A stretch of DNA of 32,000 nt, from contig DASQNT010000467.1 in the NCBI GenBank assembly GCA_035644855.1, positions 3,050-35,049 of the forward strand, read 5' to 3'. A model generated the notes under the pieces. That model was not told where the DNA came from, did not search any database, and was given only the letters and a program-made list of their open reading frames with translations. This DNA is from Polyangiaceae bacterium. Lineage in GTDB: Bacteria; Myxococcota_A; Polyangia; Polyangiales; Polyangiaceae. The translations under genes and the position numbers were made by a program. Shown one piece after another: positions 13,615 through 22,342 of the stretch. The number at the start of each line of letters is the position of its first letter. The first letter of the stretch is position 1.

Positions 13615-13853
13615 GCTCCCCTGGGGGTCTCCTCGTGGGGCGCTCGGGGCGGTCGGGGCGACCGGCCTCGACGCTTCGACCTGAGGGCCTGCTCATCGCC
13701 TCGATAGAGGTGGCAAACCTCTCGATTAAGCCGCCATTCTCGAGCGAATAATCCGCACGAATTCACACGCGAAAAACGCCGATTGAGGCGGGCCCATGAG
13801 GCCGATCGGGGCGCTTCGAAGAGACGCGCTCGAAAAAAAGATCGAAAAGAACG

Positions 13854-13882
13854 TTGACAGGGAACTGCCCGTTGGCTAGCGT
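13854..13882 (+). promoter_or_regulatory. Sigma70-type promoter candidate (TTGACA-17 nt-TAGCGT) with upstream A-tract
   Basis: TTGACA at 13854-13859, a 17-nt spacer and TAGCGT at 13877-13882. Preceded by cgaaaaaaagatcgaaaaga, which is UP-element-like. Lies in a non-coding, lower-GC stretch. Confidence 0.45.
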
Positions 13883-14098
13883 GTCGCAGAAGAATCGATT
13901 TAGGTGAGATCCATGTCCTCGATACGAACCAAGAAGCAAACGACGCAGCAGCTACCGATGGTGGCGGCGTCGTGGTGTCTCTTGGGCGGGCGTGGGCTCG
14001 ATCATCGCTTTTATGCGTCCGTCCCCGGTAGCAGCCTTGAAATTGCCAATCCGGAGGCGGACTCGTAGGCGGCCCAGCGCAACGCTGTAAGAGCGTGG

Positions 14099-14137
14099 AG
14101 GCCGCCCGGGATACCCGAGGCGGCCTTCGTCGTTTCT
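14099..14137 (+). terminator. Rho-independent terminator candidate
   Basis: Stem AGGCCGCC (14099-14106) pairs with GGCGGCCU (14119-14126). The loop contains a CGGG-AUA-CCCG mini-hairpin, followed by UCGUCGUUUCU. Confidence 0.55.
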
Positions 14138-14502
14138 GGGTCCTGAAAAGAAGCCTAGAGGGCCTGTCTCGGGGGTGTTGAGGCGGGCTTGGATTCGTGG
14201 ACCGGCGGGCGATAGCCCCCCGGCTCGCGCGATGGGGGCATTTCTCCATTCGCCGGGCCGGCGTGTGTCTTTCTTTTTGTCTGGAGCGAGGTGCTATTTC
14301 GATGCCTGAAGACCGAGGATCCATAAAACCGTCGAAGCGGTCCATCGTGAGGATGGTCCAGGCGGCGCCGCGGAGTTTCCTCGGTGATCGCTATGGATCT
14401 ATCCATTGCATGGATACGGGCTTCGCCGCGGAGAGCCGCGGCCTCACCTCTGGGGTGTTCCTTTAATCGGCGACCGAGCTCCGGCGCATACGCGTCGTGA
14501 CG

Positions 14503-14541
14503 AGGCCGCCCGGGGCTCCCGAGGCGGCCTTCGGCGTTTTT
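14503..14541 (+). terminator. Rho-independent terminator candidate (paralog of 14099-14137)
   Basis: Same stem AGGCCGCC (14503-14510) / GGCGGCCU (14523-14530), followed by UCGGCGUUUUU. Confidence 0.6.
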
Positions 14542-14880
14542 AGCGGCGGAGATTTCGTCGGACGGCGCGCGCTTTACAGCGCGCGGGCGGACAGCTTTGT
14601 CCGCAGCGTCCATAAGCGCTTTGATTAAATCGGACCGGCGCGCGCGAATGCGGGCGAAGCGGCTATGGTCGCCCATTGCGTGTTAAACTCGGTAAGTGTT
14701 CGAAATAAATAGTAAATACCACTCAAATTAATCTTGCGAATAAAAGTCTGAGAGGTTAGTCTAATCGAGTGAGCGGTTGGGAGAGCGAGACGAAATAAAT
14801 CGAGCCTCCTCCCTCCTTTATAGAGAGCGCGCAGGCAGCCTGCTTCACCGCGGCCCTGCGAGCGAGCAATACACGTGTAT

Positions 14881-14963
14881 GTGGGCGCTGAGCATTGGCG
14901 AGCTCAAGTGGCCGTAACCCACCCGTTTATTCTGTGGAGGTTCAACTCCTCCCGCCCACACCA
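14881..14963 (+). tRNA. tRNA-Tyr(GUA), type II, C33
   Basis: Acceptor GUGGGCG/CGCCCAC. D-stem GAGC/GCUC. Anticodon stem AGUGG/CCACC (1 mismatch) with loop CCGUAAC. ~12-nt variable region. T-arm GGAGG-UUCAACU-CCUCC. A73 and CCA encoded. Confidence 0.75.
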
Positions 14964-15130
14964 ATAAGAAGCAATCGCCGGAACGAAACAAAATAAATCG
15001 AACGGTGAATCGAATAAAGAAAGAAGACGAGAGTCAAAGAGAGCGAAACAAACGGGGCGGCGAGATAGACAGACAGAGAGAGATAGAGAGGGTGATATGA
15101 GACGAAAACAGCAGCGCAGAGCGCAAGAAC

Positions 15131-15202
15131 GGGCCCGTAATGTAGTGGAAGCATACTCGCCTTTTAAGCGATGAAGCGGGGGTTCAAGCCCCTCCGGGCC
15201 CA
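15131..15202 (+). tRNA. tRNA-Lys(UUU)
   Basis: Acceptor GGGCCCG/CGGGCCC. D-stem AUGU/GCAU. Anticodon loop CUUUUAA. T-arm GGGGG-UUCAAGC-CCCUC. A73, no CCA. Confidence 0.8.
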
Positions 15203-15210
15203 CGAAATCT

Positions 15211-15282
15211 GGGAGGTTGGCGTCAAGGTGACGCAGCGGATTCTTAATCCGATAGAGGTGGGTTCAATTCCCATGCCTCCCA
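15211..15282 (+). tRNA. tRNA-Lys(CUU)
   Basis: Acceptor GGGAGGU/GCCUCCC. D-stem GCGU/ACGC. Anticodon loop UUCUUAA. T-arm GUGGG-UUCAAUU-CCCAU. A73 followed by CC. Confidence 0.8.
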
Positions 15283-15289
15283 CCGCAGC

Positions 15290-15363
15290 GCCGGGATCGT
15301 CCAATGGCAAGACGGCGGTCTCTGAATCCGCAGATGCAGGTTCGATCCCTGCTCCCGGCTCCA
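15290..15363 (+). tRNA. tRNA-Gln(CUG)
   Basis: Acceptor GCCGGGA/UCCCGGC. Anticodon arm GCGGU-CUCUGAA-UCCGC. T-arm GCAGG-UUCGAUC-CCUGC. U73 plus CCA encoded. Confidence 0.8.
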
Positions 15364-15441
15364 CGCCCGTCAGGGGCAAGCTCTCAACGGAGGGCCGCGG
15401 CTGTTTGACAACTGAATACGACTTGAATGATGAAGTGAGTG

Positions 15442-15468
15442 GGGGACACTCGTGTGTCCCCTTCTTCC
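15442..15468 (+). terminator. GC hairpin plus U-rich tail abutting the next tRNA (terminator-like or processing hairpin)
   Basis: GGGGACAC (15442-15449) pairs with GUGUCCCC (15454-15461), then UUCUUCC, which runs straight into tRNA-Asn at 15466. Confidence 0.35.
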
Positions 15469-15538
15469 AGCGTAGCCAAATGGGAAGGCAGCCGACTGTT
15501 AATCGGCCTATATGGAGGTTCGATTCCTCCCGCTGGAG
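15466..15538 (+). tRNA. tRNA-Asn(GUU)
   Basis: Acceptor UCCAGCG/CGCUGGA with U1-A72 and G73, as in bacterial tRNA-Asn. Anticodon arm GCCGA-CUGUUAA-UCGGC. T-arm GGAGG-UUCGAUU-CCUCC. Confidence 0.85.
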
Positions 15539-15549
15539 CTCATCGAACA

Positions 15550-15570
15550 GGGGGCGCGCAGCCCCCTCTT
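15550..15570 (+). terminator. GC hairpin plus U-rich tail abutting the next tRNA
   Basis: GGGGGC (15550-15555) pairs with GCCCCC (15561-15566), then UCUU. tRNA-Asn copy 2 starts at 15571. Confidence 0.35.
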
Positions 15571-15643
15571 TCTGGCGTCGCCAAATGGTATGGCAGTCGG
15601 CCGTTAACCGACCGTTAGGTGGGTTCGATTCCCCCCGCCAGAG
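15571..15643 (+). tRNA. tRNA-Asn(GUU), C33 variant
   Basis: Acceptor UCUGGCG/CGCCAGA, G73. D-stem GCCA/UGGC. Anticodon arm GUCGG-CCGUUAA-CCGAC. T-loop UUCGAUU, with one mismatch in the T-stem. Confidence 0.7.
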
Positions 15644-15648
15644 CTCAT

Positions 15649-15720
15649 GCCCTCAAAGCTCATAAGGTAGAGCACCTGTCTCGTAAGCAGGGGGTTCCGG
15701 TTCGATTCCGGATGGGGGCT
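15649..15720 (+). tRNA. tRNA-Thr(CGU)
   Basis: Acceptor GCCCUCA/UGGGGGC. D-arm GCUC-AUAAGGUA-GAGC. Anticodon arm CCUGU-CUCGUAA-GCAGG. T-arm UCCGG-UUCGAUU-CCGGA. Confidence 0.8.
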
Positions 15721-15737
15721 CCGCAGGACGTAGATAC

Positions 15738-15810
15738 GGGTCGTGTGCAGGTCTGGTGATTGCGACGGTCTGAAAAGCCGTAGAACTCGGTTCGACTCCG
15801 AGACGACCCA
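15738..15810 (+). tRNA. tRNA-Phe(GAA)
   Basis: Acceptor GGGUCGU/ACGACCC. Anticodon arm ACGGU-CUGAAAA-GCCGU. T-arm CUCGG-UUCGACU-CCGAG. A73 followed by CC. Confidence 0.85.
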
Positions 15811-15812
15811 CC

Positions 15813-15834
15813 GGGAGGGCTGGCCCTCCCTATT
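15813..15834 (+). terminator. GC hairpin plus short U/A tail abutting the next tRNA
   Basis: GGGAGGG (15813-15819) pairs with CCCUCCC (15824-15830), then UAUU. tRNA-Pro starts at 15835. Confidence 0.3.
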
Positions 15835-15907
15835 CGGGATGTAGCCTAGTGGAAAGGCGCCTCATTTGGGGTGAGGAGACTCGTCGGTTCGATTCCGGCC
15901 ATCCCGA
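15835..15907 (+). tRNA. tRNA-Pro(UGG)
   Basis: Acceptor CGGGAUG/CAUCCCG with C1-G72 and A73, typical of bacterial tRNA-Pro. D-arm GCCU-AGUGGAA-AGGC. Anticodon arm CCUCA-UUUGGGG-UGAGG. T-arm GUCGG-UUCGAUU-CCGGC. Confidence 0.85.
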
Positions 15908-15926
15908 CCGCGAGAGCGAAGGTTGT

Positions 15927-16002
15927 GTGGGTGTTACTCGTCTGGTGACGAGGGCAGACTGTGACCCTGCGGAGGCGGGTTCGATTCCCGTACACCCAAC
16001 CA
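15927..16002 (+). tRNA. tRNA-His(GUG) with encoded G-1
   Basis: G at 15927 precedes acceptor UGGGUGU/ACACCCA. D-arm CUCG-UCUGGUGA-CGAG. Anticodon loop CUGUGAC. T-arm GCGGG-UUCGAUU-CCCGU. A73 (not the usual C73) plus CCA encoded. Confidence 0.8.
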
Positions 16003-16130
16003 GGAGCTGCGAGCGGGCATGAGCCCGGGGCGCTCCGATAAACGTTTGAATCGTCCGGCATGGACCGGGCGCGTCGAGGCCAAGAGCCGAGGCGCTCCCT
16101 GCCGCGCCGGGCCGGAGAAAGGAAAGGAAC

Positions 16131-17789
16131 GTGGCCAACTACCTCAAGCACCTCGTTTCGCTCTTCACGCCCCAGGGCGAGAAGGCCCGGAGCGATCAGG
16201 CTCAGAACAACGCGGGCGGGTTCGTATTCGTCCTCGATACGTGGGCGAAGCTCGACCGCTGGCTCATCCTCGGCACCGAGGGCGGGTCGTACTACGCGAC
16301 CGAGCGCCAGATGACGCGCGATAACGCGAAGACGATCCTGGAGTGCCTCGCCGAGGACGGGATCCGGACGGTGACGCGCATCGTCGAGATCAGCGACGCC
16401 GGCCGCGCTCCGAAGAACGAGCCGGCCATCTTCGCCCTCGCGATGGCGGCCGGCGCGGACGACCCGGCCACGCGCAAGGCGGCCCTCGAGGCCCTGCCGA
16501 AGGTCTGCCGCACCGGGACGCACCTCTTCCACTTCGCTCGCGACGTGGAGGGCTTCCGGCGCTGGGGACGCGGCCTCCGGACGGCCGTCGCTGCCTGGTA
16601 CAACGACAAGCCGGCCGACCGGCTCGCCTACCAGGCCGTGAAGTTCCAGCAGCGCGACGGCTTCAGCCACCGCGACCTGCTCCGCCTCGCGCACCCGAAG
16701 GCGCCCACCGCGCAGCACAACGCGATCTACCGCTGGATCGTGGGTGGGCAGGAGGCGTTCGCGAAGGCGCCCCCAAAGGGCGATGTCCTCAAGTACGAGG
16801 ACCTGCCGGCGCTCATCCAGGCGTTCGAGCGGCTGCGCGCCGCGAAGGACGCGAAGGAGGTCGCCGCGCTCGTCCGCGAGCACAGGCTCACGCACGAGAT
16901 GCTCCCGACCGAGTGGAAGAACCATTCGGTCGTATGGGAGGCGCTGCTCCAGGACATGCCGATGACGGCGATGATCCGGAACCTCGCGAAGATGACCAAC
17001 GTCGGCCTCTTGACCCCGATGAGCGACGCGGCCCGCAAGGTCGCCGCCGAGCTTATGGATGAGGGCCGCCTGCGGAAGGCTCGCGTGCACCCGATCGCGC
17101 TCCTGTCGGCGATGAAGGTCTACGAGCAGGGTCGCGGTGTGAAGGGGAGCCTCACGTGGACGCCTGTCCGCGAGATCGTCGACGCGCTCGACAGCGCGTT
17201 CTACCTCGCCTTCAGGGCAATCGAGCCAACGGGCAAGAAGCACCTGCTCGCGCTCGATGTCTCGGGGTCGATGACGTGCGGTGAGATCGCCGGGGTGCCG
17301 GGGCTCACGCCGCGCGTCGCGAGCTCGGCGATGGCGATGGTGACGGCGCGGACGGAGGCGAGCTTCGCGACCATCGCGTTCACGGCGGCGAGCGGCGGGT
17401 ATGGCGGGATGCACGGCGGCGGGACGCCTGGCGTTGCGTCGCTCGACATCTCGCCCCGGCAGCGGCTGGATGATGTCCTGAAGCTGGTGGATAACCTCCC
17501 CTTCGGCGGGACGGACTGCGCGCTGCCGATGGTTTGGGCGACCCGGAACAAGGTCGAGGTGGACACGTTCGTGGTCTACACGGACAACGAGACGTGGGCC
17601 GGCTCGGTGCATCCGTTCCAGGCGCTCCGCGAGTACCGGCAGAAGATGGGCCGGCCGGCGAAGCTCATCGTCGTTGGAATGACGGCGACGGACTTCACCA
17701 TCGCCGACCCGACCGACGCCGGGATGATGGACGTTGTCGGATTCGATACGGCCGCGCCGCAGATCATGGCCGACTTCGCCCGCGCGTAA
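16131..17789 (+). CDS. rsr: Ro60 orthologue (TROVE domain + C-terminal vWA/MIDAS domain)
   Basis: GTG start preceded by GGAGAAAGGAAAGGAAC. The N-terminal sequence (FVFVLDTWAKLDRWLILGTEGGSYYATERQ ... GRAPKNEPAIFALA) is characteristic of TROVE/Ro60. The C-terminal vWA has the MIDAS motif LLALDVSGSM and VVYTDNETW. 552 aa, the usual Ro60 size. Confidence 0.9.
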   Translation: MANYLKHLVSLFTPQGEKARSDQAQNNAGGFVFVLDTWAKLDRWLILGTEGGSYYATERQMTRDNAKTILECLAEDGIRTVTRIVEISDAGRAPKNEPAIFALAMAAGADDPATRKAALEALPKVCRTGTHLFHFARDVEGFRRWGRGLRTAVAAWYNDKPADRLAYQAVKFQQRDGFSHRDLLRLAHPKAPTAQHNAIYRWIVGGQEAFAKAPPKGDVLKYEDLPALIQAFERLRAAKDAKEVAALVREHRLTHEMLPTEWKNHSVVWEALLQDMPMTAMIRNLAKMTNVGLLTPMSDAARKVAAELMDEGRLRKARVHPIALLSAMKVYEQGRGVKGSLTWTPVREIVDALDSAFYLAFRAIEPTGKKHLLALDVSGSMTCGEIAGVPGLTPRVASSAMAMVTARTEASFATIAFTAASGGYGGMHGGGTPGVASLDISPRQRLDDVLKLVDNLPFGGTDCALPMVWATRNKVEVDTFVVYTDNETWAGSVHPFQALREYRQKMGRPAKLIVVGMTATDFTIADPTDAGMMDVVGFDTAAPQIMADFARA

Positions 17790-17831
17790 GAAGGACCAGC
17801 GCGCAGTACAAACAGCGAGCCGGGCGCGCGG

Positions 17832-17864
17832 CGGTCACCCTCCCCAAGAGAAGGAGGGCGGCCG
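17832..17864 (+). terminator. Long GC hairpin downstream of rsr (possible terminator or processing element, no clear U-tract)
   Basis: CGGUCACCCUCC (17832-17843) pairs with GGAGGGCGGCCG (17853-17864) with one mismatch and a 9-nt loop. Confidence 0.3.
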
Positions 17865-17885
17865 CCGCGCCCCGGGGAGCGTTTC

Positions 17886-17979
17886 GCCGGATGCGCCTGA
17901 TTGGAGGCATCTGTCCTCAGATTTTGCCTGGAAGGGCCGCCCGTGGACAGTTATCGAGGTTCAATTCCAACATCCGGCT
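17886..17979 (+). ncRNA. Degenerate tRNA-shaped / Y-RNA-like element (X0)
   Basis: 8-bp terminal stem GCCGGAUG/CAUCCGGC. D-arm GCCU-GAUUGG-AGGC. Where the anticodon arm should be there is a long stem CUGUCC (17911-17916) / GGACAG (17945-17950). It encloses UUUGCC-UGGAAG-GGCCG, a weakened copy of the UUGCCCG/CGGGCCGR helix of elements A-D. Then UUAUC and a T-loop-like GGUUCAAUUCC with a poor stem. Followed by a U-rich tail. Confidence 0.35.
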
Positions 17980-17990
17980 CTCGTTTTATA

Positions 17991-18115
17991 GTGACCGTAG
18001 CTTAACTGGTAGAGCGCTAAAAACACCGTCGCCGCCCCTTGCCCGGATCGGGCCGATGGATGACGGTTATCGACTGTTAATCGAGAAGATGCGGGTTCGA
18101 GTCCCGCCGGTCACG
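17991..18115 (+). ncRNA. tRNA-shaped RNA with Ro60-binding-type hairpin (Y-RNA-like element A)
   Basis: tRNA acceptor GUGACCG/CGGUCAC, D-arm GCUU-AACUGGUA-GAGC and T-arm GCGGG-UUCGAGU-CCCGC, G73. After the D-arm comes a ~45-nt arm with outer stem ACCGUC (18025-30) / GACGGU (18062-67). Its apical helix is UUGCCCG (18039-45) - GAU - CGGGC-C-GA (18049-56), that is G-C pairs, a bulged C, then G.U and A-U. A small hairpin follows, AUCGA-CUGUUAA-UCGAG (18069-85). Confidence 0.65.
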
Positions 18116-18120
18116 CTGTC

Positions 18121-18243
18121 AGGGCTGTAGTTTAATGGTAGAACGACATGCCGTCTTCAAACATTTGCCCGAGCCGGGCCGGATGGAGATGGTTACCGGA
18201 TTTGAAACCCTGGAAGGTGCGGGTTCGACCCCCGCCGGTCCTG
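18121..18243 (+). ncRNA. tRNA-shaped RNA with Ro60-binding-type hairpin (Y-RNA-like element B)
   Basis: Acceptor AGGGCUG/CGGUCCU. D-arm GUUU-AAUGGUA-GAAC. T-arm GCGGG-UUCGACC-CCCGC. G73 followed by ACUUUUUUG. Inserted arm: outer stem GCCGUC (18150-55) / GAUGGU (18188-93). Apical helix UUGCCCG (18165-71) - AGC - CGGGC-C-GG (18175-82). Confidence 0.65.
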
Positions 18244-18251
18244 ACTTTTTT

Positions 18252-18323
18252 GCCCTCGTATGCATCTGGTGAGGCAGCTTGACTGTCGATCAAGTGAGGG
18301 GAGTTCGATCCTCCTCGGGGGCG
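18252..18323 (+). tRNA. tRNA-Asp(GUC)
   Basis: Acceptor GCCCUCG/CGGGGGC. Anticodon arm CUUGA-CUGUCGA-UCAAG. T-arm GGGAG-UUCGAUC-CUCCU. G73. Confidence 0.85.
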
Positions 18324-18330
18324 CCTTATG

Positions 18331-18458
18331 GTGGCTGTAGCTCAATTGGTAGAGCGCTAAAAACGCCGTCGCCGCCCCTTGCCCGGAGACGGGCCGATGG
18401 ATGACGGTTATCGATTTGGATCGAGAGGTTGCGGGTTCGAGCCCCGTCAGTCACCCCA
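18331..18458 (+). ncRNA. tRNA-shaped RNA with Ro60-binding-type hairpin (Y-RNA-like element C, paralog of A, CCA encoded)
   Basis: Acceptor GUGGCUG/CAGUCAC. D-arm GCUC-AAUUGGUA-GAGC. T-arm GCGGG-UUCGAGC-CCCGU. C73 then CCA (18456-58). Inserted arm: GCCGUC (18365-70) / GACGGU (18403-08). Apical helix UUGCCCG (18379-85) - GAGA - CGGGC-C-GA (18390-97). The side hairpin has only a 4-6-nt loop (UCGA-UUUGGA-UCGA). Confidence 0.65.
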
Positions 18459-18459
18459 T

Positions 18460-18480
18460 GACGTATAGCTTAACGAAGTA
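18460..18480 (+). pseudogene. tRNA 5'-fragment (acceptor/D-arm remnant)
   Basis: GACGUAUAGCUUAACGAAGUA resembles the 5' part of elements A/C (..CCGUAGCUUAACUGG..). No downstream arms are present. Confidence 0.3.
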
Positions 18481-18481
18481 T

Positions 18482-18554
18482 GTCCCCGTGTCCGAACGGA
18501 GAAGGAGCTGGTTTCCTAAACCAGTGTGTGCAGGTTCGACTCCTGCCGGGGACG
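18482..18554 (+). tRNA. tRNA-Arg(CCU)
   Basis: Acceptor GUCCCCG/CGGGGAC. D-stem UCCG/AGGA. Anticodon arm CUGGU-UUCCUAA-ACCAG. T-arm GCAGG-UUCGACU-CCUGC. G73. Confidence 0.8.
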
Positions 18555-18558
18555 CCCC

Positions 18559-18679
18559 AGGGCTGTAGTTTAACGGCAGAACATCATACCGTTCTACGAT
18601 CCTTGCCCGACTCGGGCCGGAGCAGAACGGTTATCGGAACCTCACTCCGAAGGTGCGGGTTCGACTCCCGCCGGTCCTG
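18559..18679 (+). ncRNA. tRNA-shaped RNA with Ro60-binding-type hairpin (Y-RNA-like element D, paralog of B)
   Basis: Acceptor AGGGCUG/CGGUCCU. D-arm GUUU-AACGGCA-GAAC. T-arm GCGGG-UUCGACU-CCCGC. G73. Inserted arm: ACCGUUC (18588-94) / GAACGGU (18625-31). Apical helix UUGCCCG (18603-09) - ACU - CGGGC-C-GG (18613-20). Side hairpin UCGGA-ACCUCAC-UCCGA. Confidence 0.65.
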
Positions 18680-18687
18680 GACTTTAT

Positions 18688-18758
18688 GCGCCCGTATGCA
18701 ACTGGTACGCAGCTTGATTGTCGATCAAGTGATGGGAGTTCAATTCTCCTCGGGTGCG
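18688..18758 (+). tRNA. tRNA-Asp(GUC), second copy
   Basis: Acceptor GCGCCCG/CGGGUGC. Anticodon arm CUUGA-UUGUCGA-UCAAG. T-arm GGGAG-UUCAAUU-CUCCU. G73. Confidence 0.8.
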
Positions 18759-18782
18759 CCGGAGCCGAGAGGCTCCACACAT

Positions 18783-18853
18783 AGGATGTAGAGTCATGGT
18801 GACCGCGGAGCCTCCAAAACTCCTGCGAGAGGGTTCGATTCCTTCACATCCTG
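18783..18853 (+). tRNA. tRNA-Trp(CCA)
   Basis: Acceptor AGGAUGU/ACAUCCU with A1-U72 and G73, as in bacterial tRNA-Trp. Anticodon loop CUCCAAA. T-arm GAGGG-UUCGAUU-CCUUC. Short 3-bp D-stem GUC/GAC. Preceded by hairpin GGAGCC-GAGA-GGCUCC (18761-76). Confidence 0.75.
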
Positions 18854-18873
18854 CCGGGTCCGACGAGGACCAT

Positions 18874-18944
18874 GGGGATGTAGTTCAAAGGAAGAACCGC
18901 TGCTTCGCGAGCAGCAGATGCGGGTTCGAGTCCCGCCCTCTCCA
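18874..18944 (+). tRNA. tRNA-Ala(CGC)
   Basis: Acceptor GGGGAUG/CCUCUCC with the G3:U70 alanine identity pair and a U6/C67 mismatch. Anticodon arm GCUGC-UUCGCGA-GCAGC. T-arm GCGGG-UUCGAGU-CCCGC. A73. Confidence 0.8.
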
Positions 18945-18970
18945 CCGCAGCCGTATTGATTGAGTGTTCA

Positions 18971-19041
18971 GGGGATGTAGTTCAAAGGAAGAATCGCCGC
19001 TCGGCATGCGGCAGATGCGGGTTCGAGTCCCGCCTTCTCCA
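18971..19041 (+). tRNA. tRNA-Ala(GGC), C33 variant
   Basis: Acceptor GGGGAUG/CUUCUCC with G3:U70 and a U6/U67 mismatch. Anticodon arm GCCGC-UCGGCAU-GCGGC. T-arm GCGGG-UUCGAGU-CCCGC. A73. Confidence 0.7.
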
Positions 19042-19063
19042 CCGCAGGATTAGTAGGGTTTTC

Positions 19064-19134
19064 GGGGACGTAGCTCAAAGGAAGAGCCGCCGCCTTGCAA
19101 GCGGCAGATGCGGGTTCGAGTCCCGCCTTCTCCA
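19064..19134 (+). tRNA. tRNA-Ala(UGC)
   Basis: Acceptor GGGGACG/CUUCUCC with G3:U70 and a C6/U67 mismatch. Anticodon arm GCCGC-CUUGCAA-GCGGC. T-arm GCGGG-UUCGAGU-CCCGC. A73. Confidence 0.8.
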
Positions 19135-19139
19135 CCGAC

Positions 19140-19212
19140 GCCACCCAGGCCCAGGAGGCGGGGCACCTGTTTGGTACACAGGAGACGGCGGGTTCGATTC
19201 CCGCGGGTGGCT
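19140..19212 (+). tRNA. tRNA-Thr(GGU)
   Basis: Acceptor GCCACCC/GGGUGGC. D-stem GCCC/GGGC. Anticodon arm CCUGU-UUGGUAC-ACAGG. T-arm GCGGG-UUCGAUU-CCCGC. Confidence 0.85.
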
Positions 19213-19226
19213 CTACGTAAACGTTC

Positions 19227-19300
19227 GCGGGCATCGTCCAACGGTAGGACCTGAGTCTTCCAAACTCATTGTGCGGGTTCGACTCCCGCTGTCCGCTCCA
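19227..19300 (+). tRNA. tRNA-Gly(UCC)
   Basis: Acceptor GCGGGCA/UGUCCGC. Anticodon arm UGAGU-CUUCCAA-ACUCA. T-arm GCGGG-UUCGACU-CCCGC. U73 plus CCA encoded. Confidence 0.9.
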
Positions 19301-19319
19301 GGCAGCAGCAGTAATTTTT

Positions 19320-19390
19320 GCGGTGGTAGTTCAACGGTAGAATTCGAGGATGCCAGCCTTGAGATCCGGGTTCGATTCCCGGTCACCGCA
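19320..19390 (+). tRNA. tRNA-Gly(GCC)
   Basis: Acceptor GCGGUGG/UCACCGC. Anticodon arm CGAGG-AUGCCAG-CCUUG. T-arm CCGGG-UUCGAUU-CCCGG. A73 followed by CC. Confidence 0.8.
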
Positions 19391-19401
19391 CCGTTCTTAT
19401 T

Positions 19402-19473
19402 GAGCCGGTTCTCTGGCGAGGTGCTCGCTCTGCAAAAGCGGGCGTGAGGGTTCAATTCCCTCCCGGCTCTCCA
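19402..19473 (+). tRNA. tRNA-Cys(GCA)
   Basis: Acceptor GAGCCGG/CCGGCUC. Anticodon arm UCGCU-CUGCAAA-AGCGG. T-arm GAGGG-UUCAAUU-CCCUC. U73 (Cys identity) plus CCA encoded. Compact D-arm. Confidence 0.75.
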
Positions 19474-19474
19474 C

Positions 19475-19547
19475 GCCTCGGTAGCATAACGGAGAGTGCA
19501 GGCGGCTTCTACCCGCCAATGTGGGGGTTCGACTCCCTCCCGGGGCG
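19475..19547 (+). tRNA. tRNA-Arg(UCU)
   Basis: Acceptor GCCUCGG/CCGGGGC. D-arm GCAU-AACGGAGA-GUGC. Anticodon arm GGCGG-CUUCUAC-CCGCC. T-arm GGGGG-UUCGACU-CCCUC. Starts 1 nt after the CCA of tRNA-Cys. Confidence 0.8.
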
Positions 19548-19575
19548 CCTTGATAAATGACTTAAACAAATAGAA

Positions 19576-19615
19576 TCTCACCTCGGAAACGCGGGTTCGA
19601 ATCCCGCTGAGGACG
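19576..19615 (+). pseudogene. Orphan 3' half of a tRNA-Glu-like gene
   Basis: UCUCACCUCGGAAAC-GCGGG-UUCGAAU-CCCGC-UGAGGAC-G parallels the 3' half of tRNA-Glu at 19629-19704. It is preceded by AT-rich sequence, and no matching GUCCUCA 5' strand lies nearby. Confidence 0.5.
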
Positions 19616-19628
19616 CCGACGCACATCT

Positions 19629-19704
19629 GTCCCCATCCTTGCTAGCTGGTTCAGGCAGCCGGGCCCTCATCCCGGAAACGCGGGTTCGAATCCCGCTGGG
19701 GACG
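19629..19704 (+). tRNA. tRNA-Glu(CUC), C33 variant
   Basis: Acceptor GUCCCCA/UGGGGAC with G73 (Glu-like). D-stem CUUG/CAGG. Anticodon arm CCGGG-CCCUCAU-CCCGG. T-arm GCGGG-UUCGAAU-CCCGC. Three nt instead of one lie between the D and anticodon stems. Confidence 0.7.
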
Positions 19705-19708
19705 CTAA

Positions 19709-19783
19709 GGTACGCGACGGGTTTCAACACGCACAGCTCGAGCCATCCGAAAGGATGTGTGCGCGCCTTATCCGCCGCGTACC
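19709..19783 (+). ncRNA. Unclassified tRNA-sized structured element
   Basis: 8-bp terminal stem GGUACGCG (19709-16) / CGCGUACC (19776-83). An internal coaxial hairpin CGCACA..CAUCC-GAAA-GGAUG-UGUGCG carries an 8-nt bulge GCUCGAGC. There is no canonical T-loop or anticodon arm. Confidence 0.3.
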
Positions 19784-19791
19784 GCAAATCT

Positions 19792-19866
19792 CTCCCTGTC
19801 TCGGCGGTATCCGAGCACCGGTCTACGAAATCGGTTGTCTCCGTTCAACTCGGAGCAGGGAGGCCA
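19792..19866 (+). tRNA. tRNA-Arg(ACG), atypical D-arm
   Basis: Acceptor CUCCCUG/CAGGGAG. Possible 5-bp D-stem CUCGG/CCGAG. 6-bp anticodon stem ACCGGU/AUCGGU with loop CUACGAA. T-arm CUCCG-UUCAACU-CGGAG. G73 plus CCA encoded. Confidence 0.65.
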
Positions 19867-19869
19867 AGC

Positions 19870-19940
19870 GCCTTTGTTCTGGCGGCACCAGAGGCAAGCC
19901 TCCGAAGCTTGCTATCCGGGTTCAACTCCCGGCAAAGGCT
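19870..19940 (+). tRNA. tRNA-Arg(CCG), extended anticodon stem
   Basis: Acceptor GCCUUUG/CAAAGGC. D-arm CUGG-CGGCA-CCAG. 7-bp anticodon stem GGCAAGC/GCUUGCU with loop CUCCGAA. T-arm CCGGG-UUCAACU-CCCGG. Confidence 0.65.
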
Positions 19941-19946
19941 TGTAAA

Positions 19947-20018
19947 CGCGATGGCTCAGGGTGAGAGGCGGCCCTCATAAGGCTGTCCGTGAGGGTTCGA
20001 TTCCCTCCGTCGCGACCA
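19947..20018 (+). tRNA. tRNA-Met(CAU) (elongator or Ile2-type; not initiator-like)
   Basis: Acceptor CGCGAUG/CGUCGCG. Very compact D-arm (CUC-AGGGUGA-GAG). Anticodon arm CGGCC-CUCAUAA-GGCUG, which lacks the three consecutive G-C pairs of initiators. T-arm GAGGG-UUCGAUU-CCCUC. A73 plus CCA encoded. Confidence 0.6.
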
Positions 20019-20019
20019 T

Positions 20020-20097
20020 CGAGGTGTGGCTCAATCTGGTTAGAGCACCGCGTTCGGGACGCGGGGACTGCCGGTTCGAATCCGGCCACCTCGACCA
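20020..20097 (+). tRNA. tRNA-Pro(CGG)
   Basis: Acceptor CGAGGUG/CACCUCG with C1-G72 and A73. D-arm GCUC-AAUCUGGUUA-GAGC. Anticodon arm CCGCG-UUCGGGA-CGCGG. T-arm GCCGG-UUCGAAU-CCGGC. CCA encoded. Starts 1 nt after the previous CCA. Confidence 0.9.
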
Positions 20098-20117
20098 TCT
20101 CTCCAAAAAACATTTTC

Positions 20118-20194
20118 GCGGGGCGAGCCAGCTGGAGACGGCGCCTGGCCTACACCCAGGTCTCGCATGGGTTCGATTCCCTGGCCCCGTACCA
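20118..20194 (+). tRNA. tRNA-Val(UAC), C33 variant
   Basis: Acceptor GCGGGGC/GCCCCGU (G1.U72). D-arm GCCA-GCUGGAGA-CGGC. Anticodon arm CCUGG-CCUACAC-CCAGG. T-loop UUCGAUU with a weak T-stem. A73 plus CCA encoded. Confidence 0.65.
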
Positions 20195-20227
20195 TCCGGA
20201 GCGGATGTACTCGTCGCCCCGGCGGGA

Positions 20228-20299
20228 GGACCACAAGATCTGGTCGATCTGCGGCGTCTTATAAGCGCCTGCGGCGGGGTCCGATTCCCCGGTGGTCCA
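20228..20299 (+). tRNA. tRNA-Ile(UAU)-like, non-canonical T-loop
   Basis: Acceptor GGACCAC/GUGGUCC. D-arm GAUC-UGGUC-GAUC. Anticodon arm GGCGU-CUUAUAA-GCGCC. T-arm CGGGG-UCCGAUU-CCCCG, with C where U55 is expected. A73 followed by CC. Confidence 0.55.
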
Positions 20300-20346
20300 C
20301 CGGAGATAGAGAGAGGTATTGAGGAGCAATTCGGCTGAAGAATTCA

Positions 20347-20422
20347 GGGGTAGGACGGTACGGTTTACCTGGGCTCTCTGATACGGAGCCCGGCCCGTGT
20401 TCGACTCACGGCTACCCCACCA
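20347..20422 (+). tRNA. tRNA-Ile(GAU)
   Basis: Acceptor GGGGUAG/CUACCCC. Anticodon arm GCUCU-CUGAUAC-GGAGC. T-arm CCGUG-UUCGACU-CACGG. A73 plus CCA encoded. Confidence 0.8.
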
Positions 20423-20423
20423 C

Positions 20424-20498
20424 GCGGAGCTCGCTCTCTGGGAGAGCACCGGCTCGACAAGCCGGGCCAGGTGGGTTCGATTCCCGCGCTCCGTACCA
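20424..20498 (+). tRNA. tRNA-Val(GAC), C33 variant
   Basis: Acceptor GCGGAGC/GCUCCGU (G1.U72). D-arm GCUC-UCUGGGA-GAGC. Anticodon arm CCGGC-UCGACAA-GCCGG. T-arm GUGGG-UUCGAUU-CCCGC. A73 plus CCA encoded. 1-nt spacer on each side. Confidence 0.7.
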
Positions 20499-20499
20499 T

Positions 20500-20583
20500 G
20501 TCCAGGTGGCGGAATGGCATACGCGACGGTCTCAGAAACCGGCCCTTCGGGGTATGAGGGTTCGAGTCCCTCTCTGGACACCA
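20500..20583 (+). tRNA. tRNA-Leu(CAG), type II
   Basis: Acceptor GUCCAGG/UCUGGAC. D-arm GCGG-AAUGGCAUA-CGCG. Anticodon loop CUCAGAA. Variable arm CCC-UUCG-GGG. T-arm GAGGG-UUCGAGU-CCCUC. A73 plus CCA encoded. Confidence 0.85.
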
Positions 20584-20608
20584 TTGCTTAACTTCATGAT
20601 TGATACAT

Positions 20609-20691
20609 GCCACCGTGGCGGAATGGCATACGCGACAGGCTGAGAACCTGTGCTCCCACGGAGTATGAGGGTTCGACTCCCTCCGGTGGTA
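20609..20691 (+). tRNA. tRNA-Leu(GAG), type II
   Basis: Acceptor GCCACCG/CGGUGGU (G1.U72). Same D-arm as the Leu(CAG) gene. Anticodon arm ACAGG-CUGAGAA-CCUGU. Variable arm CUCC-CA-CGGAG-like. T-arm GAGGG-UUCGACU-CCCUC. A73 followed by CC. Confidence 0.8.
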
Positions 20692-20717
20692 CCTCGTAGT
20701 ATCCACAAAAAGACCAG

Positions 20718-20750
20718 AGCCCCGGCGCCGCCGGGAGCTATCATTTCTTA
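20718..20750 (+). terminator. Terminator-like hairpin after the second tRNA block
   Basis: AGC-CCCGGC (20718-26) pairs with GCCGGG-(A)-GCU (20730-39), followed by AUCAUUUCUUA. Confidence 0.4.
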
Positions 20751-20811
20751 CGCAGCTTGATCCGCGCCGGGAGGCGACAATGAAGAAGAAGAGGCGAAGG
20801 TGAGGTGAACC

Positions 20812-21333
20812 ATGTCCGCGCGAACGCTCCTTTTGACCCCCTGGATGATGCCGCACAAGATCATCTCGTGGCAGGACGCCGTCACGATGATGTTCCTCAA
20901 CAAGGTGGAAGTGCTCGAGGCCTACGACGAGGAGATCGTCTCGCCGTCGCTGGCGATCCGCATGCCCGCCGTGGTCCGGCTCAAGAGGTCCGCGAGCAAC
21001 ACGAAGCGCGGCGTTAAGTTCAGCCGCATCAACGTCTTTACCCGCGACGGGTTCCGCTGCCAGTACTGCGGCGACAAGAAGCGGATGGGCGAGCTCAACT
21101 ACGACCACGTGATCCCCCGTATGCAGGGAGGAAAGACGGTCTGGGAGAACATCGTGACGGCGTGCTACCCCTGCAACAACAAGAAGAGGGGCCGCACGCC
21201 CGAGCAGGCTGGGATGACGCTCCTCTCGCGACCAATCAAGCCGAAGTCGCTGCCGCTCACGCCGGCGCTCCTCGACCTCCGGACGATCCCGCCCGCGTGG
21301 TCAGGATACTGCGCGTCGATCGGCGCCGCGTAA
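20812..21333 (+). CDS. HNH endonuclease
   Basis: RBS GAAGGUGAGGUG about 5 nt upstream of the ATG. HNH/zinc motif DGFRCQYCG...NYDHVIPRMQGGKTVWENIVTACYPCNNKK. 173 aa. Confidence 0.9.
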   Translation: MSARTLLLTPWMMPHKIISWQDAVTMMFLNKVEVLEAYDEEIVSPSLAIRMPAVVRLKRSASNTKRGVKFSRINVFTRDGFRCQYCGDKKRMGELNYDHVIPRMQGGKTVWENIVTACYPCNNKKRGRTPEQAGMTLLSRPIKPKSLPLTPALLDLRTIPPAWSGYCASIGAA

Positions 21334-21373
21334 GAACCAACCTACGTCATTGATCAAAAAATGAGCGCCTCGG

Positions 21374-21403: not shown

Positions 21404-21417
21404 TCGGGCCCTCGCCT

Positions 21418-21492
21418 CGGGGTGTAGCTTAGCCAGGCAAAAGCGCGTGACTGGGGGTCACGAGATCGCTGGTTCAATTCCAGTCACCCCGA
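21418..21492 (+). tRNA. tRNA-Pro(GGG)
   Basis: Acceptor CGGGGUG/CACCCCG with C1-G72 and A73. Anticodon arm CGUGA-CUGGGGG-UCACG. T-arm GCUGG-UUCAAUU-CCAGU. Confidence 0.8.
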
Positions 21493-21511
21493 CCGGGTTT
21501 TAGCAGTTCAA

Positions 21512-21599
21512 GGAAGCGAAGCCGGCGAGGCGCCGGGCCCGCCTGGAAAGCGGTGCGCACCCATTCTCCGGGTGTGGGATTCGAGTTCTCTCGCTTCCG
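21512..21599 (+). tRNA. tRNA-Ser(GGA), type II
   Basis: Acceptor GGAAGCG/CGCUUCC with G73 (Ser-like). D-stem GCC/GGC. Anticodon stem CCGC/GCGG with loop CUGGAAA. Variable arm CACCC-AUUCUCC-GGGUG. Weak T-arm UGGGA-UUCGAGU-UCUCU. Confidence 0.7.
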
Positions 21600-21611
21600 C
21601 CGAGCACAGAA

Positions 21612-21694
21612 GGAGAGCAAACCGGCCCGGGGCCGGCGCCGTCTTGAAAACGGATGGACGGGCGACCGTTGGGGTTCGACACCTCTGTTCTCCG
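21612..21694 (+). tRNA. tRNA-Ser(UGA), type II
   Basis: Acceptor GGAGAGC/GUUCUCC, G73. Anticodon stem CCGU/ACGG with loop CUUGAAA. Variable arm ACGG-GCGA-CCGU. T-loop UUCGACA. Confidence 0.75.
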
Positions 21695-21708
21695 CAGCTC
21701 ACGATTCT

Positions 21709-21793
21709 GGAAGGTGAATCGGCCAGGGGCCGAGCCTGTTTCGAAAGCAGTGCGATGTCAGACGGCATTGGGGATCGAGACCTCCGCCTTCCG
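21709..21793 (+). tRNA. tRNA-Ser(CGA), type II, atypical T-loop
   Basis: Acceptor GGAAGGU/GCCUUCC, G73. Anticodon stem CUGU/GCAG with loop UUCGAAA. Long variable arm. T-loop AUCGAGA, with A at position 54. Confidence 0.65.
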
Positions 21794-21825
21794 CCGGTCA
21801 ACGAGAAGTACCAAAACAAACGTAC

Positions 21826-21899
21826 GCGGTGATGGTAGAGCGGTAGAATCTGAGAGTCCCATCCTCAGGATCCGGGTTCGATCCCCGGTCGCCGCACCA
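21826..21899 (+). tRNA. tRNA-Gly(CCC)
   Basis: Acceptor GCGGUGA/UCGCCGC. D-arm GUAG-AGCGGUA-GAAU. Anticodon loop GUCCCAU with stem UGAGA/CCUCA (1 mismatch). T-arm CCGGG-UUCGAUC-CCCGG. A73 plus CCA encoded. Confidence 0.75.
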
Positions 21900-21911
21900 G
21901 TTCACGAGAAC

Positions 21912-21985
21912 GTCCTCATATCAGCTAGCGGTCAGGCGGTCGGCCTTTCAATCCGACGACGCGGGTTCGATTCCCGCTGAGGACA
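21912..21985 (+). tRNA. tRNA-Glu(UUC)
   Basis: Acceptor GUCCUCA/UGAGGAC. Anticodon loop CUUUCAA with stem UCGGC/UCCGA (terminal mismatch). T-arm GCGGG-UUCGAUU-CCCGC. A73 followed by CC. Confidence 0.75.
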
Positions 21986-22009
21986 CCGGAGCGCGCAGGA
22001 ATGCGTCAC

Positions 22010-22044
22010 GCGCGGCTCGCCCCTCCCTACCGGGCGACCCGCGC
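22010..22044 (+). other. Imperfect GC-rich inverted repeat between tRNA genes
   Basis: GCGCGG-C-UCGCC (22010-21) pairs with GGCGA-C-CCGCGC (22033-44), 11 bp with one C/C mismatch and an 11-nt loop. Confidence 0.4.
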
Positions 22045-22068
22045 GCCGCGTCTGGGGCGCTCTCCTAT

Positions 22069-22157
22069 GGAAGCTGAATCGGCAGAGGTGCCGAGCCCGG
22101 CCGCTAACCGGTGCGTGCCCTCACGGGCATGGTGTTCGACTCATCCGGCTTCCGCCA
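22069..22157 (+). tRNA. tRNA-Ser(GCU), type II, C33 variant
   Basis: Acceptor GGAAGCU/GGCUUCC, G73 plus CCA encoded. Anticodon stem CCGG/CCGG with loop CCGCUAA. Variable arm UGCCC-UCAC-GGGCA. T-loop UUCGACU. Confidence 0.7.
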
Positions 22158-22163
22158 ACAACC

Positions 22164-22235
22164 GCCGCCGTAGCTCAATCGGCAGAGCTCCTGTCTTGTA
22201 AACAGGCGACACCGGTTCGAGCCCGGTCGGCGGCT
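22164..22235 (+). tRNA. tRNA-Thr(UGU)
   Basis: Acceptor GCCGCCG/CGGCGGC. D-arm GCUC-AAUCGGCA-GAGC. Anticodon arm CCUGU-CUUGUAA-ACAGG. T-arm ACCGG-UUCGAGC-CCGGU. Confidence 0.9.
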
Positions 22236-22268
22236 CCCCGCCCCCCTCCCTTCATCCAGATTGACCGC

Positions 22269-22342
22269 TCGGGGATCGTCTAATGGCAGGACAGGAGCCT
22301 TTGAAGCTCCCAGTCGTGGTTCGAGCCCACGTCCCCGAACCA
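22269..22342 (+). tRNA. tRNA-Gln(UUG)
   Basis: Acceptor UCGGGGA/UCCCCGA (U1-A72). D-arm GUCU-AAUGGCA-GGAC. Anticodon arm GGAGC-CUUUGAA-GCUCC. T-arm CGUGG-UUCGAGC-CCACG. A73 plus CCA encoded. Confidence 0.85.

Follow-up and report, generated by a model that had tools for sequence, protein, structure and literature searches.

We analyzed rsr, the gene for a bacterial Ro60 protein (Rsr), in a stretch of 32,000 nucleotides from a Polyangiaceae bacterium (contig DASQNT010000467.1, assembly GCA_035644855.1), referred to below as the window, where it lies among closely spaced transfer RNA (tRNA) genes. Patterns in the window and in related loci make it probable, as judged from sequence, that rsr is an integral member of a one-strand tRNA array within a cassette conserved in Polyangiaceae, and that the Y RNAs of this Rsr are tRNA-type genes expressed from the tRNA polycistron. 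The HNH nuclease gene of the cassette and the order of its tRNAs are conserved and the flanking genes are not, so that the conserved unit consists of tRNAs, rsr, tRNA/Y RNA chimeras interleaved with tRNAs, the HNH gene and further tRNAs.

The evidence comes first from comparison with 80 rsr loci taken from reference genomes, which were searched with a covariance model of the chimeras (R1), counting matches of at least 100 nt. There were 133 such matches (about 47–114 bits), lying beside rsr in 69 of the 80 genome loci as well as in the window, and on the strand of rsr in every case among the matches listed; ordinary tRNAs scored 52 bits or less with R1, and the four long chimeras of the window 93–112 bits. 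The same elements occur in loci from Sorangium, Chondromyces, Polyangium, Haliangiales/Kofleriaceae, Armatimonadota, Chloroflexota and Longimicrobium. If rsr is counted as embedded where each of its sides has tRNAs of the same orientation no more than 2 kb away, the gene was embedded in 19 of 20 Polyangiaceae loci and 23 of 27 from other Myxococcota (42/47 for the phylum), in 2 of 8 from Chloroflexota, 1 of 7 from other phyla and 0 of 18 from Armatimonadota, the last of which retained the chimeras. The co-occurrence of rsr with tRNA arrays, proposed as a check in an initial annotation of the window, was thus observed for most Myxococcota loci and for none from Armatimonadota. Within Polyangiaceae the order is Lys-Lys-Gln-Asn-Thr-(Glu)-Phe-Pro-His-rsr-chimeras...Ala...Gly...Pro...Leu, and within Haliangiales/Kofleriaceae Tyr-Gln-Phe-Lys-Gly-Thr-[chimera]-rsr-Asn-Glu-[chimera]-Arg-Trp-Met...Leu-Ser; tRNA-Asp(GUC) stands directly 3′ of chimeras in the window, its nearest relative (locus L002), Sorangium and Chondromyces (three times). 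Conserved embedding and conserved tRNA order indicate a real link rather than an accident. The constant partner of this Rsr clade nevertheless appears to be a tRNA-scaffolded Y RNA and not the array, which is lineage-specific but recurrent, and because Armatimonadota keep chimeras without an array, the simplest reason for the location of rsr would be that its Y RNAs are tRNA-type genes. Synteny of the flanks was rejected as evidence of vertical inheritance, the upstream PMT2-Maf-OmpA-PCC genes being common to the nearest relative only. Two contigs had unexpected labels: a metagenome-assembled genome (MAG) labelled Glaciihabitans (L059) has the Kofleriaceae-type tRNA order around rsr, and one labelled Janthinobacterium lividum (L042) has an Armatimonadota-type leader; either these contigs are mis-binned or the cassette was recently transferred.

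The chimeras, of which the window has four strong copies and one degenerate copy, are predicted to serve this Rsr clade as its cognate Y RNAs. They share a plan in which an open 7-bp acceptor stem, D arm, long hairpin and GGUUAYC are followed by a short hairpin, T arm and the 3′ strand of the acceptor stem. The short hairpin is anticodon-like, in relatives frequently with a 7-nt loop of anticodon type, and the long hairpin sits between the D arm and this vestigial anticodon arm. Its loop-capped tip, 5′-UUGCCCG-(3–4 nt)-CGGGC-C-GA, is what we take to be the helix to which Ro60 binds in the Y RNAs of metazoans and Deinococcus (there GGUCCGA/UUGACC, likewise with the C bulged), G-C here replacing U-A. 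The comparison of Ro-binding helices is based in part on published work (PMC4201824). An alignment of 28 chimeras (Myxococcota, Armatimonadota, Chloroflexota and Longimicrobium) on an explicit structure had 96.6% of its cells paired, a share that was 38–50% with partners slid; 15 of 30 pairs had compensatory changes, and the covariation score was 0.424 compared with about 0.10. The D and T helices were 99–100% paired, also with compensatory changes. UUGCC, GGGC[C]G (bulged C in brackets) and GGUUAYC were near-invariant across these 28 sequences, as expected of a sequence-specific protein site, and the family consensus GCCGAAGG agrees with the published Rsr-binding motif, GNCGAAN0-1G (PMC4201824). 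That Rsr would bind these RNAs through the bulged helix is supported indirectly, by the presence of Ro-site RNAs beside rsr in the 69 loci.

Individual copies in the window vary in completeness. The Rfam tRNA model fits three stretches of 121–125 nt at 39.6–42.6 bits by skipping an insert of 63–65 nt. In chimera B the minimum free energy fold equals the centroid fold and all arms are present. In chimera E an acceptor stem and a D-like arm are present, the Ro-site hairpin lies at 17924–17939 and is followed by GGACAGUUAUC, the T arm is weak and the anticodon-like hairpin is absent. The region 17986–18760 was built by interleaved duplications: chimera B, 340 nt away from chimera D, matches it at 90% identity over 62 nt, and the unit of chimera A plus tRNA-Asp is repeated as chimera C plus tRNA-Asp at a spacing of 435–438 nt.

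The protein encoded by rsr is a full-length Ro60, as had been claimed in the initial annotation. Pfam detected both domains, TROVE (PF05731, E=6.7e-48, residues 25–328) and the Ro60-type von Willebrand factor A (vWA) domain (PF25045, E=3.1e-64, residues 370–550), and Deinococcus radiodurans Rsr (2NVO) aligned with it end to end (E=5.5e-132, residues 1–551); vertebrate Ro60 matched at E=3.7e-125 (9NEN) and E=4.1e-120 (1YVP). The MIDAS residues DVSGS 376–380, T461 and D485 were invariant in an alignment of Rsr homologs. The N-terminus, MANY, agrees with M1, N3 and Y4 invariant in homologs, which indicates that the GTG start is correct. The score of 593 bits (E=3.3e-178) with the NCBIfam Rsr equivalog NF041674 does not reach the curated cut-off of 900, and the protein is thus a true Ro60 family member from a clade distant from the training set of that model. 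Nearest relatives are from Polyangiaceae MAGs (93%), followed by Sorangium, Chondromyces, Minicystis and Polyangium (about 70%), and identity between phyla (57–63%) is the same as inside Myxococcota. Other details of the initial annotation also held: the gene has its own Shine-Dalgarno (SD) sequence, the purine-rich GGAAAGGAAC immediately 5′ of the start; it begins after a gap of 128 nt from tRNA-His (ARAGORN, 15928–16002); the first tRNA-like element, expected about 95 nt past its stop, begins at 17886, a distance of 96 nt; it shares its strand with all 37 ARAGORN tRNA calls; and it lies away from any rtc operon, with no rtcB, rtcA or RtcR gene among the 20 flanking open reading frames (ORFs) scanned in the window.

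The array occupies about 7 kb of one strand and holds 36 tRNAs, 3 class-II-like tRNAs, 5 chimeras and one HNH nuclease gene. The ARAGORN calls, all on the + strand, span 15131 to 22342, and one of them, an “Asn” at 18044–18116, is a miscall, being a fragment of the longer chimera D. Rfam adds tRNA-like genes at 14881–14960, 21611–21694 and 22069–22153. Including the five chimeras there are about 44 tRNA-like elements, where the initial annotation had given 42 tRNAs, and the median gap between elements is 18 nt. Some 36 tRNAs in 7.2 kb is far beyond chance expectation. A tRNA array unit has been defined as at least 20 tRNA genes at a density of at least 2 per kb (Tran et al. 2016; PMC4758250), and this array has 36 without the chimeras, at about 5 per kb between 15131 and 22342 with 2.2 kb of coding sequence counted in. 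Redundancy with housekeeping tRNA copies is usual for arrays and lies outside that definition (PMC4758250); since the homologous Sorangium locus keeps only 10–13 of these tRNAs, the remainder must be encoded elsewhere in Sorangium. Arrays of relatives contain from 6 to 38 tRNAs. CCA is encoded by about one quarter of the array tRNAs and by none of the chimeras.

The upstream block contains Lys(UUU), Lys(CUU), Gln(CUG), Asn(GUU) twice, Thr(CGU), Phe(GAA), Pro(UGG) and His(GUG). The central block has Asp, Trp, three Ala, Thr, two Gly, Cys, three Arg, Glu, Met, Pro, Ile(UAU), Ile(GAU), Val and two Leu, and the distal block has Pro(GGG), Gly(CCC), Glu(UUC), Thr(UGU), Gln(UUG) and the class-II-like tRNAs at 21611–21694 and 22069–22153. 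Coordinates are collected in Table 1.

Table 1. Features of the rsr-containing tRNA array, in positions of the window
Feature	Position	Strand	Evidence or remark
AT-rich non-coding lead-in, candidate promoter region	14677..15130	+	49% GC compared with 63–70% around
Upstream tRNA block, 9 tRNAs	15131..16002	+	ARAGORN, Rfam
rsr leader, structured, with SD GGAAAGGAAC	16003..16130	+	fold -65.6 kcal/mol, z=-2.3
rsr (Ro60/Rsr; TROVE ring and vWA/MIDAS domain)	16131..17789	+	552 aa, GTG start
GC-rich hairpin 3′ of rsr stop, then UUU only	17820..17875	+	-59.1 kcal/mol, z=-4.57
Chimera E, short, degenerate, 94 nt	17886..17979	+	R1 covariance model 21.9 bits; fold
Chimera D, 125 nt, Ro-site hairpin 18039–18055	17991..18115	+	R1 112.1 bits; Rfam tRNA; covariation
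Chimera A, 123 nt, Ro-site hairpin 18165–18181	18121..18243	+	R1 92.7 bits; Rfam tRNA with 65-nt insert
tRNA-Asp(GUC), conserved chimera neighbour	18252..18325	+	ARAGORN
Chimera B, 125 nt, Ro-site hairpin 18379–18396, GAGA loop cap	18331..18455	+	R1 103.3 bits
tRNA-Arg(CCU)	18481..18557	+	ARAGORN; Rfam 60.4 bits
Chimera C, 121 nt, Ro-site hairpin 18603–18619	18559..18679	+	R1 100.3 bits; fold z=-2.09
Central tRNA block, 21 tRNAs and truncated tRNA-Glu copy	18688..20693	+	ARAGORN, Rfam, repeat analysis
HNH endonuclease, 173 aa, directly after tRNA-Leu genes	20812..21333	+	Pfam HNH_5/HNH; phrog_16726 E=2e-30
Distal tRNA block	21418..22342	+	ARAGORN, Rfam

Co-transcription of rsr with the array, which the initial annotation took as its starting point, is plausible from sequence organization. 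A single strand, close spacing and the AT-rich lead-in are consistent with a single transcription unit, and there was no canonical + strand terminator from 14534 to 22172. Less favorable is the stable hairpin just after rsr. None of 200 shuffles was equally stable, and an equivalent hairpin lies 3′ of rsr in all Polyangiaceae loci examined, with a second hairpin followed by UUUU in some Sorangium. It is a candidate for a protective stem at the mRNA 3′ end or for a leaky terminator or attenuator. The lead-in, which may serve as the promoter of the array, holds repeated AAATAAATCGA-like motifs and a weak tRNA-like element of 80 nt (14881–14960; Rfam tRNA 35.5 bits). About 1.5 kb without a called gene (13615–15130) separates the PCC-domain gene from the first tRNA, and terminator-like hairpins lie on the + strand 5′ of the lead-in, at 14441–14456 and 14512–14534.

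A capped hairpin resembling the Ro site (YUG-stem-loop-stem-C-CGR) was observed just 5′ of the rsr start in 51 of 159 loci, among L003–L020, L024–L078 and viral L085–L096. In 49 of the 51 an SD-like motif follows immediately (e.g. UUGCCCCGAUGGGGCCGAAAGGAG...AUG), and the stems covary (GCCCGG, GCCCC, GCUCGUG, GUCCAC). The Sorangium leader also has a GGACGG...CCGUCC helix and GGUUAUC, and thereby mimics the whole Y module. This hairpin is a candidate operator for translational autorepression, with Rsr placed over its own ribosome binding site. The leaders of the window and of L002 have a degenerate version only, which in the window is a remnant at 16097–16117 (...CGGGCCGGAG) recognized by alignment and motif tally.

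Because the chimeras have tRNA ends, a tRNA-type biogenesis is suggested: by analogy with M. smegmatis YrlA, they would belong to the tRNA polycistron and mature through RNase P, processing at the 3′ end and the CCA-adding enzyme. Such biogenesis, together with descent from array tRNAs, would be the primary reason for the location of rsr in the array. The rsr and HNH mRNAs would probably be freed from the long transcript by excision of the flanking tRNAs, with the hairpin after rsr possibly shielding the mRNA 3′ end or partly attenuating read-through. Rsr is predicted to bind the protruding Ro-site hairpin, and the tRNA-like body may act as a module tethering an effector, as in the ribonucleoproteins (RNPs) of Rsr and PNPase with YrlA or Yrn1. 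The outcome would be an RNA-surveillance RNP that is inherited, and probably also expressed, together with accessory tRNAs and the HNH nuclease. The least certain step is a possible coupling to the array tRNAs themselves, in which damaged or misfolded tRNAs would be cleared and spare copies supplied.

There are several points that weigh against this interpretation, beginning with its reliance on sequence throughout. To our knowledge, the termini of all characterised Y RNAs form the Ro-site helix, and here that helix is loop-capped. The window copies GCCGAUGG, GCCGGAUGG and GCCGGAGC are each one base off GNCGAA, and chimera E is degenerate, at 21.9 bits. A scan for sigma-70 sites returned none and no promoter was identified, the sigma-70 consensus being uninformative for a myxobacterium. 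Finally, the hairpin after rsr could truly terminate transcription, uncoupling rsr from the chimeras.

Comparison with known systems helps to define what the chimeras are. YrlA, encoded in rsr-yrlBA-rtcBA of Salmonella Typhimurium and, with YrlB, in Mycobacterium smegmatis, resembles them in having a Ro60-binding stem and a tRNA-like module with D and T arms, and in being encoded on the same strand a few hundred nt from rsr; its GNCGAA-type motif recurs in the family consensus of the chimeras, the window copies each deviating by one base. The chimeras are circularly permuted relative to it: they have an open acceptor and tRNA ends, their D arm comes before the T arm and their Ro helix is capped, whereas YrlA has a Ro stem made by its termini, the two arms in reverse order and a loop-closed acceptor stem, none of which applies to the chimeras. 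Their Ro helix keeps both strands, like metazoan and Deinococcus Y RNAs and unlike YrlA, and they have the additional anticodon-like hairpin. The M. smegmatis YrlA has a 7-bp acceptor stem, RNase P cleavage and a CCA tail (PMC4201824). The window also differs from the Salmonella operon in having no rtcBA or RtcR and in carrying 4–5 RNA copies interleaved with tRNAs. The Rfam YrlA model RF02553 gave only 16–29 bits in the window (best 28.7), short of its gathering score of 69, and gave none in 8 related loci; every match ran from the T arm of an element into the D arm of its successor, in permuted register. Canonical YrlA was ruled out by these scores and the bridging register. A permuted reading in YrlA register was also rejected, since three chimera junctions are broken by whole tRNAs and each Ro helix has its own loop of 3–4 nt. 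Chen et al. (2014) warned of a dimeric-tRNA artefact of this type, met YrlA only seldom in delta-proteobacteria and set aside candidates that overlapped tandem tRNA genes, which would explain how the open-acceptor form was overlooked.

Other systems share parts of the cassette. The Rsr/Yrn1/PNPase complex of D. radiodurans (RYPER) is alike in its full-length protein alignment, its both-strand Ro helix with bulged C and the presumed tethering of Rsr to an effector by the Y RNA, but the termini of Yrn1 form the Ro helix and Deinococcus has no tRNA-array context. Known bacterial tRNA array units (Tran et al. 2016; Morgado & Vicente 2018) are similar in size and density, family-level tRNA synteny, an HNH gene inside the array, duplications and truncated copies; indeed, HNH endonucleases are the commonest coding sequences in mycobacterial tRNA arrays (PMC5966550). 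They differ in that the window array belongs to Myxococcota, a phylum unlisted in the 2016 survey, and carries rsr and Ro-site chimeras, unmentioned in searchable papers on bacterial arrays. A TROVE gene was reported from 20 of 29 archaeal tRNA clusters, in a single remark (Morgado & Vicente 2019; PMC6333295). These clusters are alike in having TROVE inside and HNH and mobile-element genes nearby, and differ in belonging to another domain of life and in being described in one sentence, without an RNA partner or mechanism.

The locus is part of a myxobacterial chromosome and not of a phage. Its sequence is also found in a metagenome contig of 39.9 kb at ENA (ERZ27286121), which contains the window. 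On one flank are genes for an NS endonuclease, MopE/FGE-sulfatase proteins, SDR, PMT_2, Maf, OmpA and PCC, and on the other gamma-glutamyltranspeptidase, a methyltransferase and BrkB. GC content at third codon positions (GC3) is 0.93 for rsr and 0.92 for the HNH gene, with 0.83–0.91 in neighbouring genes, and the module looks native because its GC3 matches the host and its flanks are cellular genes. A Pfam-type ORF scan and PHROG found no integrase, transposase or phage structural gene in the window, and PHROG matched Rsr, HNH, one ORF of unknown function and no others. A prophage or integrative element was rejected on these grounds. Origin from a known phage or plasmid was rejected as well, the best phage Ro-like match being 51% and the best plasmid match 45% in a window without phage or integrative genes, as was membership in a defence system, since PADLOC had no match for Rsr and only generic weak matches for HNH (PtuB, restriction enzymes).

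Homologs of the HNH protein (46–71% identity) are encoded on the + strand, inside the array and 3′ of rsr, in 39 loci. A tRNA-Leu gene lies directly 5′ of the HNH gene in the window, in Sorangium loci, in Myxococcus phage Mx1 and in virus Rctr197k, the last two having the closest phage homologs (41%); in Mx1 there is tRNA-Leu on both sides, and in Rctr197k the homolog follows four tRNA-Leu genes. The stretches concerned are 20500–21333 in the window, 4905–5879 in locus L165 and 4396–5543 in L166. This adjacency suggests a homing site or a functional link at tRNA-Leu.

An alternative explanation, which has some chance of being right although we favor the cassette with tRNA-type Y RNAs, is that the locus is a kit for stress or phage conflict, of mobile or phage origin, in which the array replaces host tRNAs cleaved or depleted, e.g. 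through anticodon nucleases or translational stress, while Rsr, Y RNAs and an exonuclease clear the damaged or nicked ones. It overlaps with our interpretation and differs in taking a response to tRNA damage as the selected function. It also corresponds to one of two roles offered by way of inference in the initial annotation, translation rescue and quality control of array tRNAs. Both proteins have relatives in phage families (phrog_850, phrog_16726), and Ro-like proteins were found in 354 phage records, with relatives in 256 IMG/VR contigs. Among the best 80 viral loci, 24 had the strict chimera signature, 10 had at least 5 tRNAs and 5 had rsr between tRNAs, and one of these (L142) has an HNH homolog too. 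The 16-kb tRNA region of Mx1 combines at least 15 tRNAs with genes for TROVE, a VWA protein, a phosphoesterase, a peptidyl-tRNA hydrolase and the HNH homolog. Past transfer is suggested by the equal Rsr identity across phyla and by flanks that are non-syntenic beyond the nearest relative, and the Salmonella rsr operon is reported to be induced by damaged tRNAs (PMC7790460). On the other hand, the window lacks integrase, transposase and phage structural genes, its codon composition is host-like, Rsr matches no PADLOC defence family and HNH only weak generic ones, and no RtcB or RtcA repair genes are at the locus. Moreover, Armatimonadota and Chloroflexota keep rsr and chimeras without arrays, so spare tRNAs are not needed for Rsr function. 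Support for such a kit is circumstantial.

Resemblance to phages is itself uneven. Mx1 (OR576727.2, 48–64 kb) is like the window in its co-oriented tRNAs, TROVE protein and HNH homolog by tRNA-Leu, but its TROVE protein is 21% identical to the window Rsr, no R1-type chimera was detected in its tRNA region, and its layout is looser, with many other coding sequences. Phages Mx1, Nappy and Phosso gave no chimera or weak matches only, and Gordonia phage Cashline gave one match of 64 bits. Genes of divergent TROVE lineages are thus found repeatedly among accessory tRNAs, in agreement with the published remark on archaeal clusters. Two viral contigs were observed with large arrays: L085 (UViG_3300032883_000151) has rsr at 68% identity, 20 tRNAs and two chimeras (81 and 60 bits), and L142 (UViG_2791355197_000001) has rsr at 50%, 29 tRNAs and the HNH homolog at 40%. 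Each may be a piece of myxobacterial chromosome to which the tRNA array gave a viral score, or a genuine phage or prophage that carries the cassette.

It appears unlikely that the array is instead a dedicated quality-control arrangement, with its partly non-canonical tRNAs as the main Rsr substrates, threaded into an exonuclease. Low Rfam tRNA scores (31–45 bits) were found for Glu, Met, Gly-CCC, Val, Asp and His, there are truncated copies such as 19562–19617, embedding is conserved, and the Ro60 cavity binds misfolded small RNAs (PMC12135203). However, most array tRNAs are ordinary (47–68 bits), many rsr loci have chimeras with few or no tRNAs nearby, and no mark of an Rsr ligand was found on the tRNAs, whereas the chimeras have an explicit Ro site. 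Of the two roles put forward in the initial annotation, this one has the least specific support.

We give similarly low credence to a composite scenario in which ancestral chimeras gave rise to the permuted YrlA and are CCA-tailed and perhaps aminoacylated, the cassette is exchangeable, and Rsr represses itself through the Ro-site mimic at the SD. YrlA would then have arisen from a tandem chimera pair read in permuted register, which would give concrete form to the “dimeric tRNA” model of the literature, and the D-A tandem of the window does score as YrlA in that register, below the gathering score of 69. Chimeras, Rsr, the tRNA-Leu-linked HNH and spare tRNAs would, in such a scenario, form a tRNA-damage-response or anti-defence cassette of myxobacteria and phages. 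It is highly improbable that rsr is merely a functionally unlinked and independently expressed neighbor of the tRNAs, with the chimeras as decaying or intron-containing tRNA genes: the strong hairpin after rsr may terminate, ARAGORN and Rfam label the chimeras plain tRNAs and tRNA content among relatives is variable (6 to 38), but different genera share the order tRNA-His/rsr/chimera/tRNA-Asp and the HNH gene further downstream, 69/80 loci of several phyla have chimeras with rsr, on the same strand among the matches listed, and the insert lies outside the anticodon loop and carries the conserved Ro helix, with compensatory changes in the supporting stems.

That Y RNAs mimic tRNAs, and lie beside tRNAs in some bacteria, is already known. 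No paper linking Ro60 with bacterial tRNA arrays was found in a search that did not extend to the main Ro60 reviews or the supplements of Chen et al. (2014). Within the literature searched, four elements were not found: a conserved tRNA array in bacteria of which rsr is an integral part, an unpermuted, open-acceptor form of Y RNA, a conserved HNH partner of the rsr cassette, and tRNA arrays in Myxococcota, a phylum that the 2016 survey does not list (PMC4758250). Two widespread but poorly understood systems, Ro60 with its Y RNAs and large accessory tRNA arrays, are joined here in one conserved and compact cassette, the occurrence of which in culturable Sorangium, Chondromyces and Polyangium makes the questions directly testable. 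With true tRNA ends, the role of the tRNA-like module of bacterial Y RNAs could be assayed with RNase P, the CCA-adding enzyme and possibly synthetases and EF-Tu. The locus also bears on the origin of the circular permutation in YrlA, the apparent absence of Y RNAs in delta-proteobacteria and whether tRNA arrays bring their own RNA-surveillance machinery. For annotation, ARAGORN and Rfam currently call the chimeras tRNAs or partial tRNAs.

Some individual tRNAs of the array have unusual features. A truncated copy at 19562–19617 corresponds to the 3′ half of tRNA-Glu and is 75% identical to tRNA-Glu(CUC) at 19635–19705, and is evidence for continuing duplication and decay in the array. ARAGORN assigned anticodon UAU to a tRNA-Ile at 20228–20301, adjoining a normal tRNA-Ile(GAU). 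In bacteria AUA is usually decoded by a lysidine-modified CAU tRNA, and Ile(UAU) is unusual; a Chloroflexia locus (L070) has Ile(UAU) beside rsr as well. The usual discriminator of bacterial tRNA-His is C, and in the tRNA-His preceding rsr, inspected by eye, the discriminator is A, with G-1 apparently encoded and CCA encoded.

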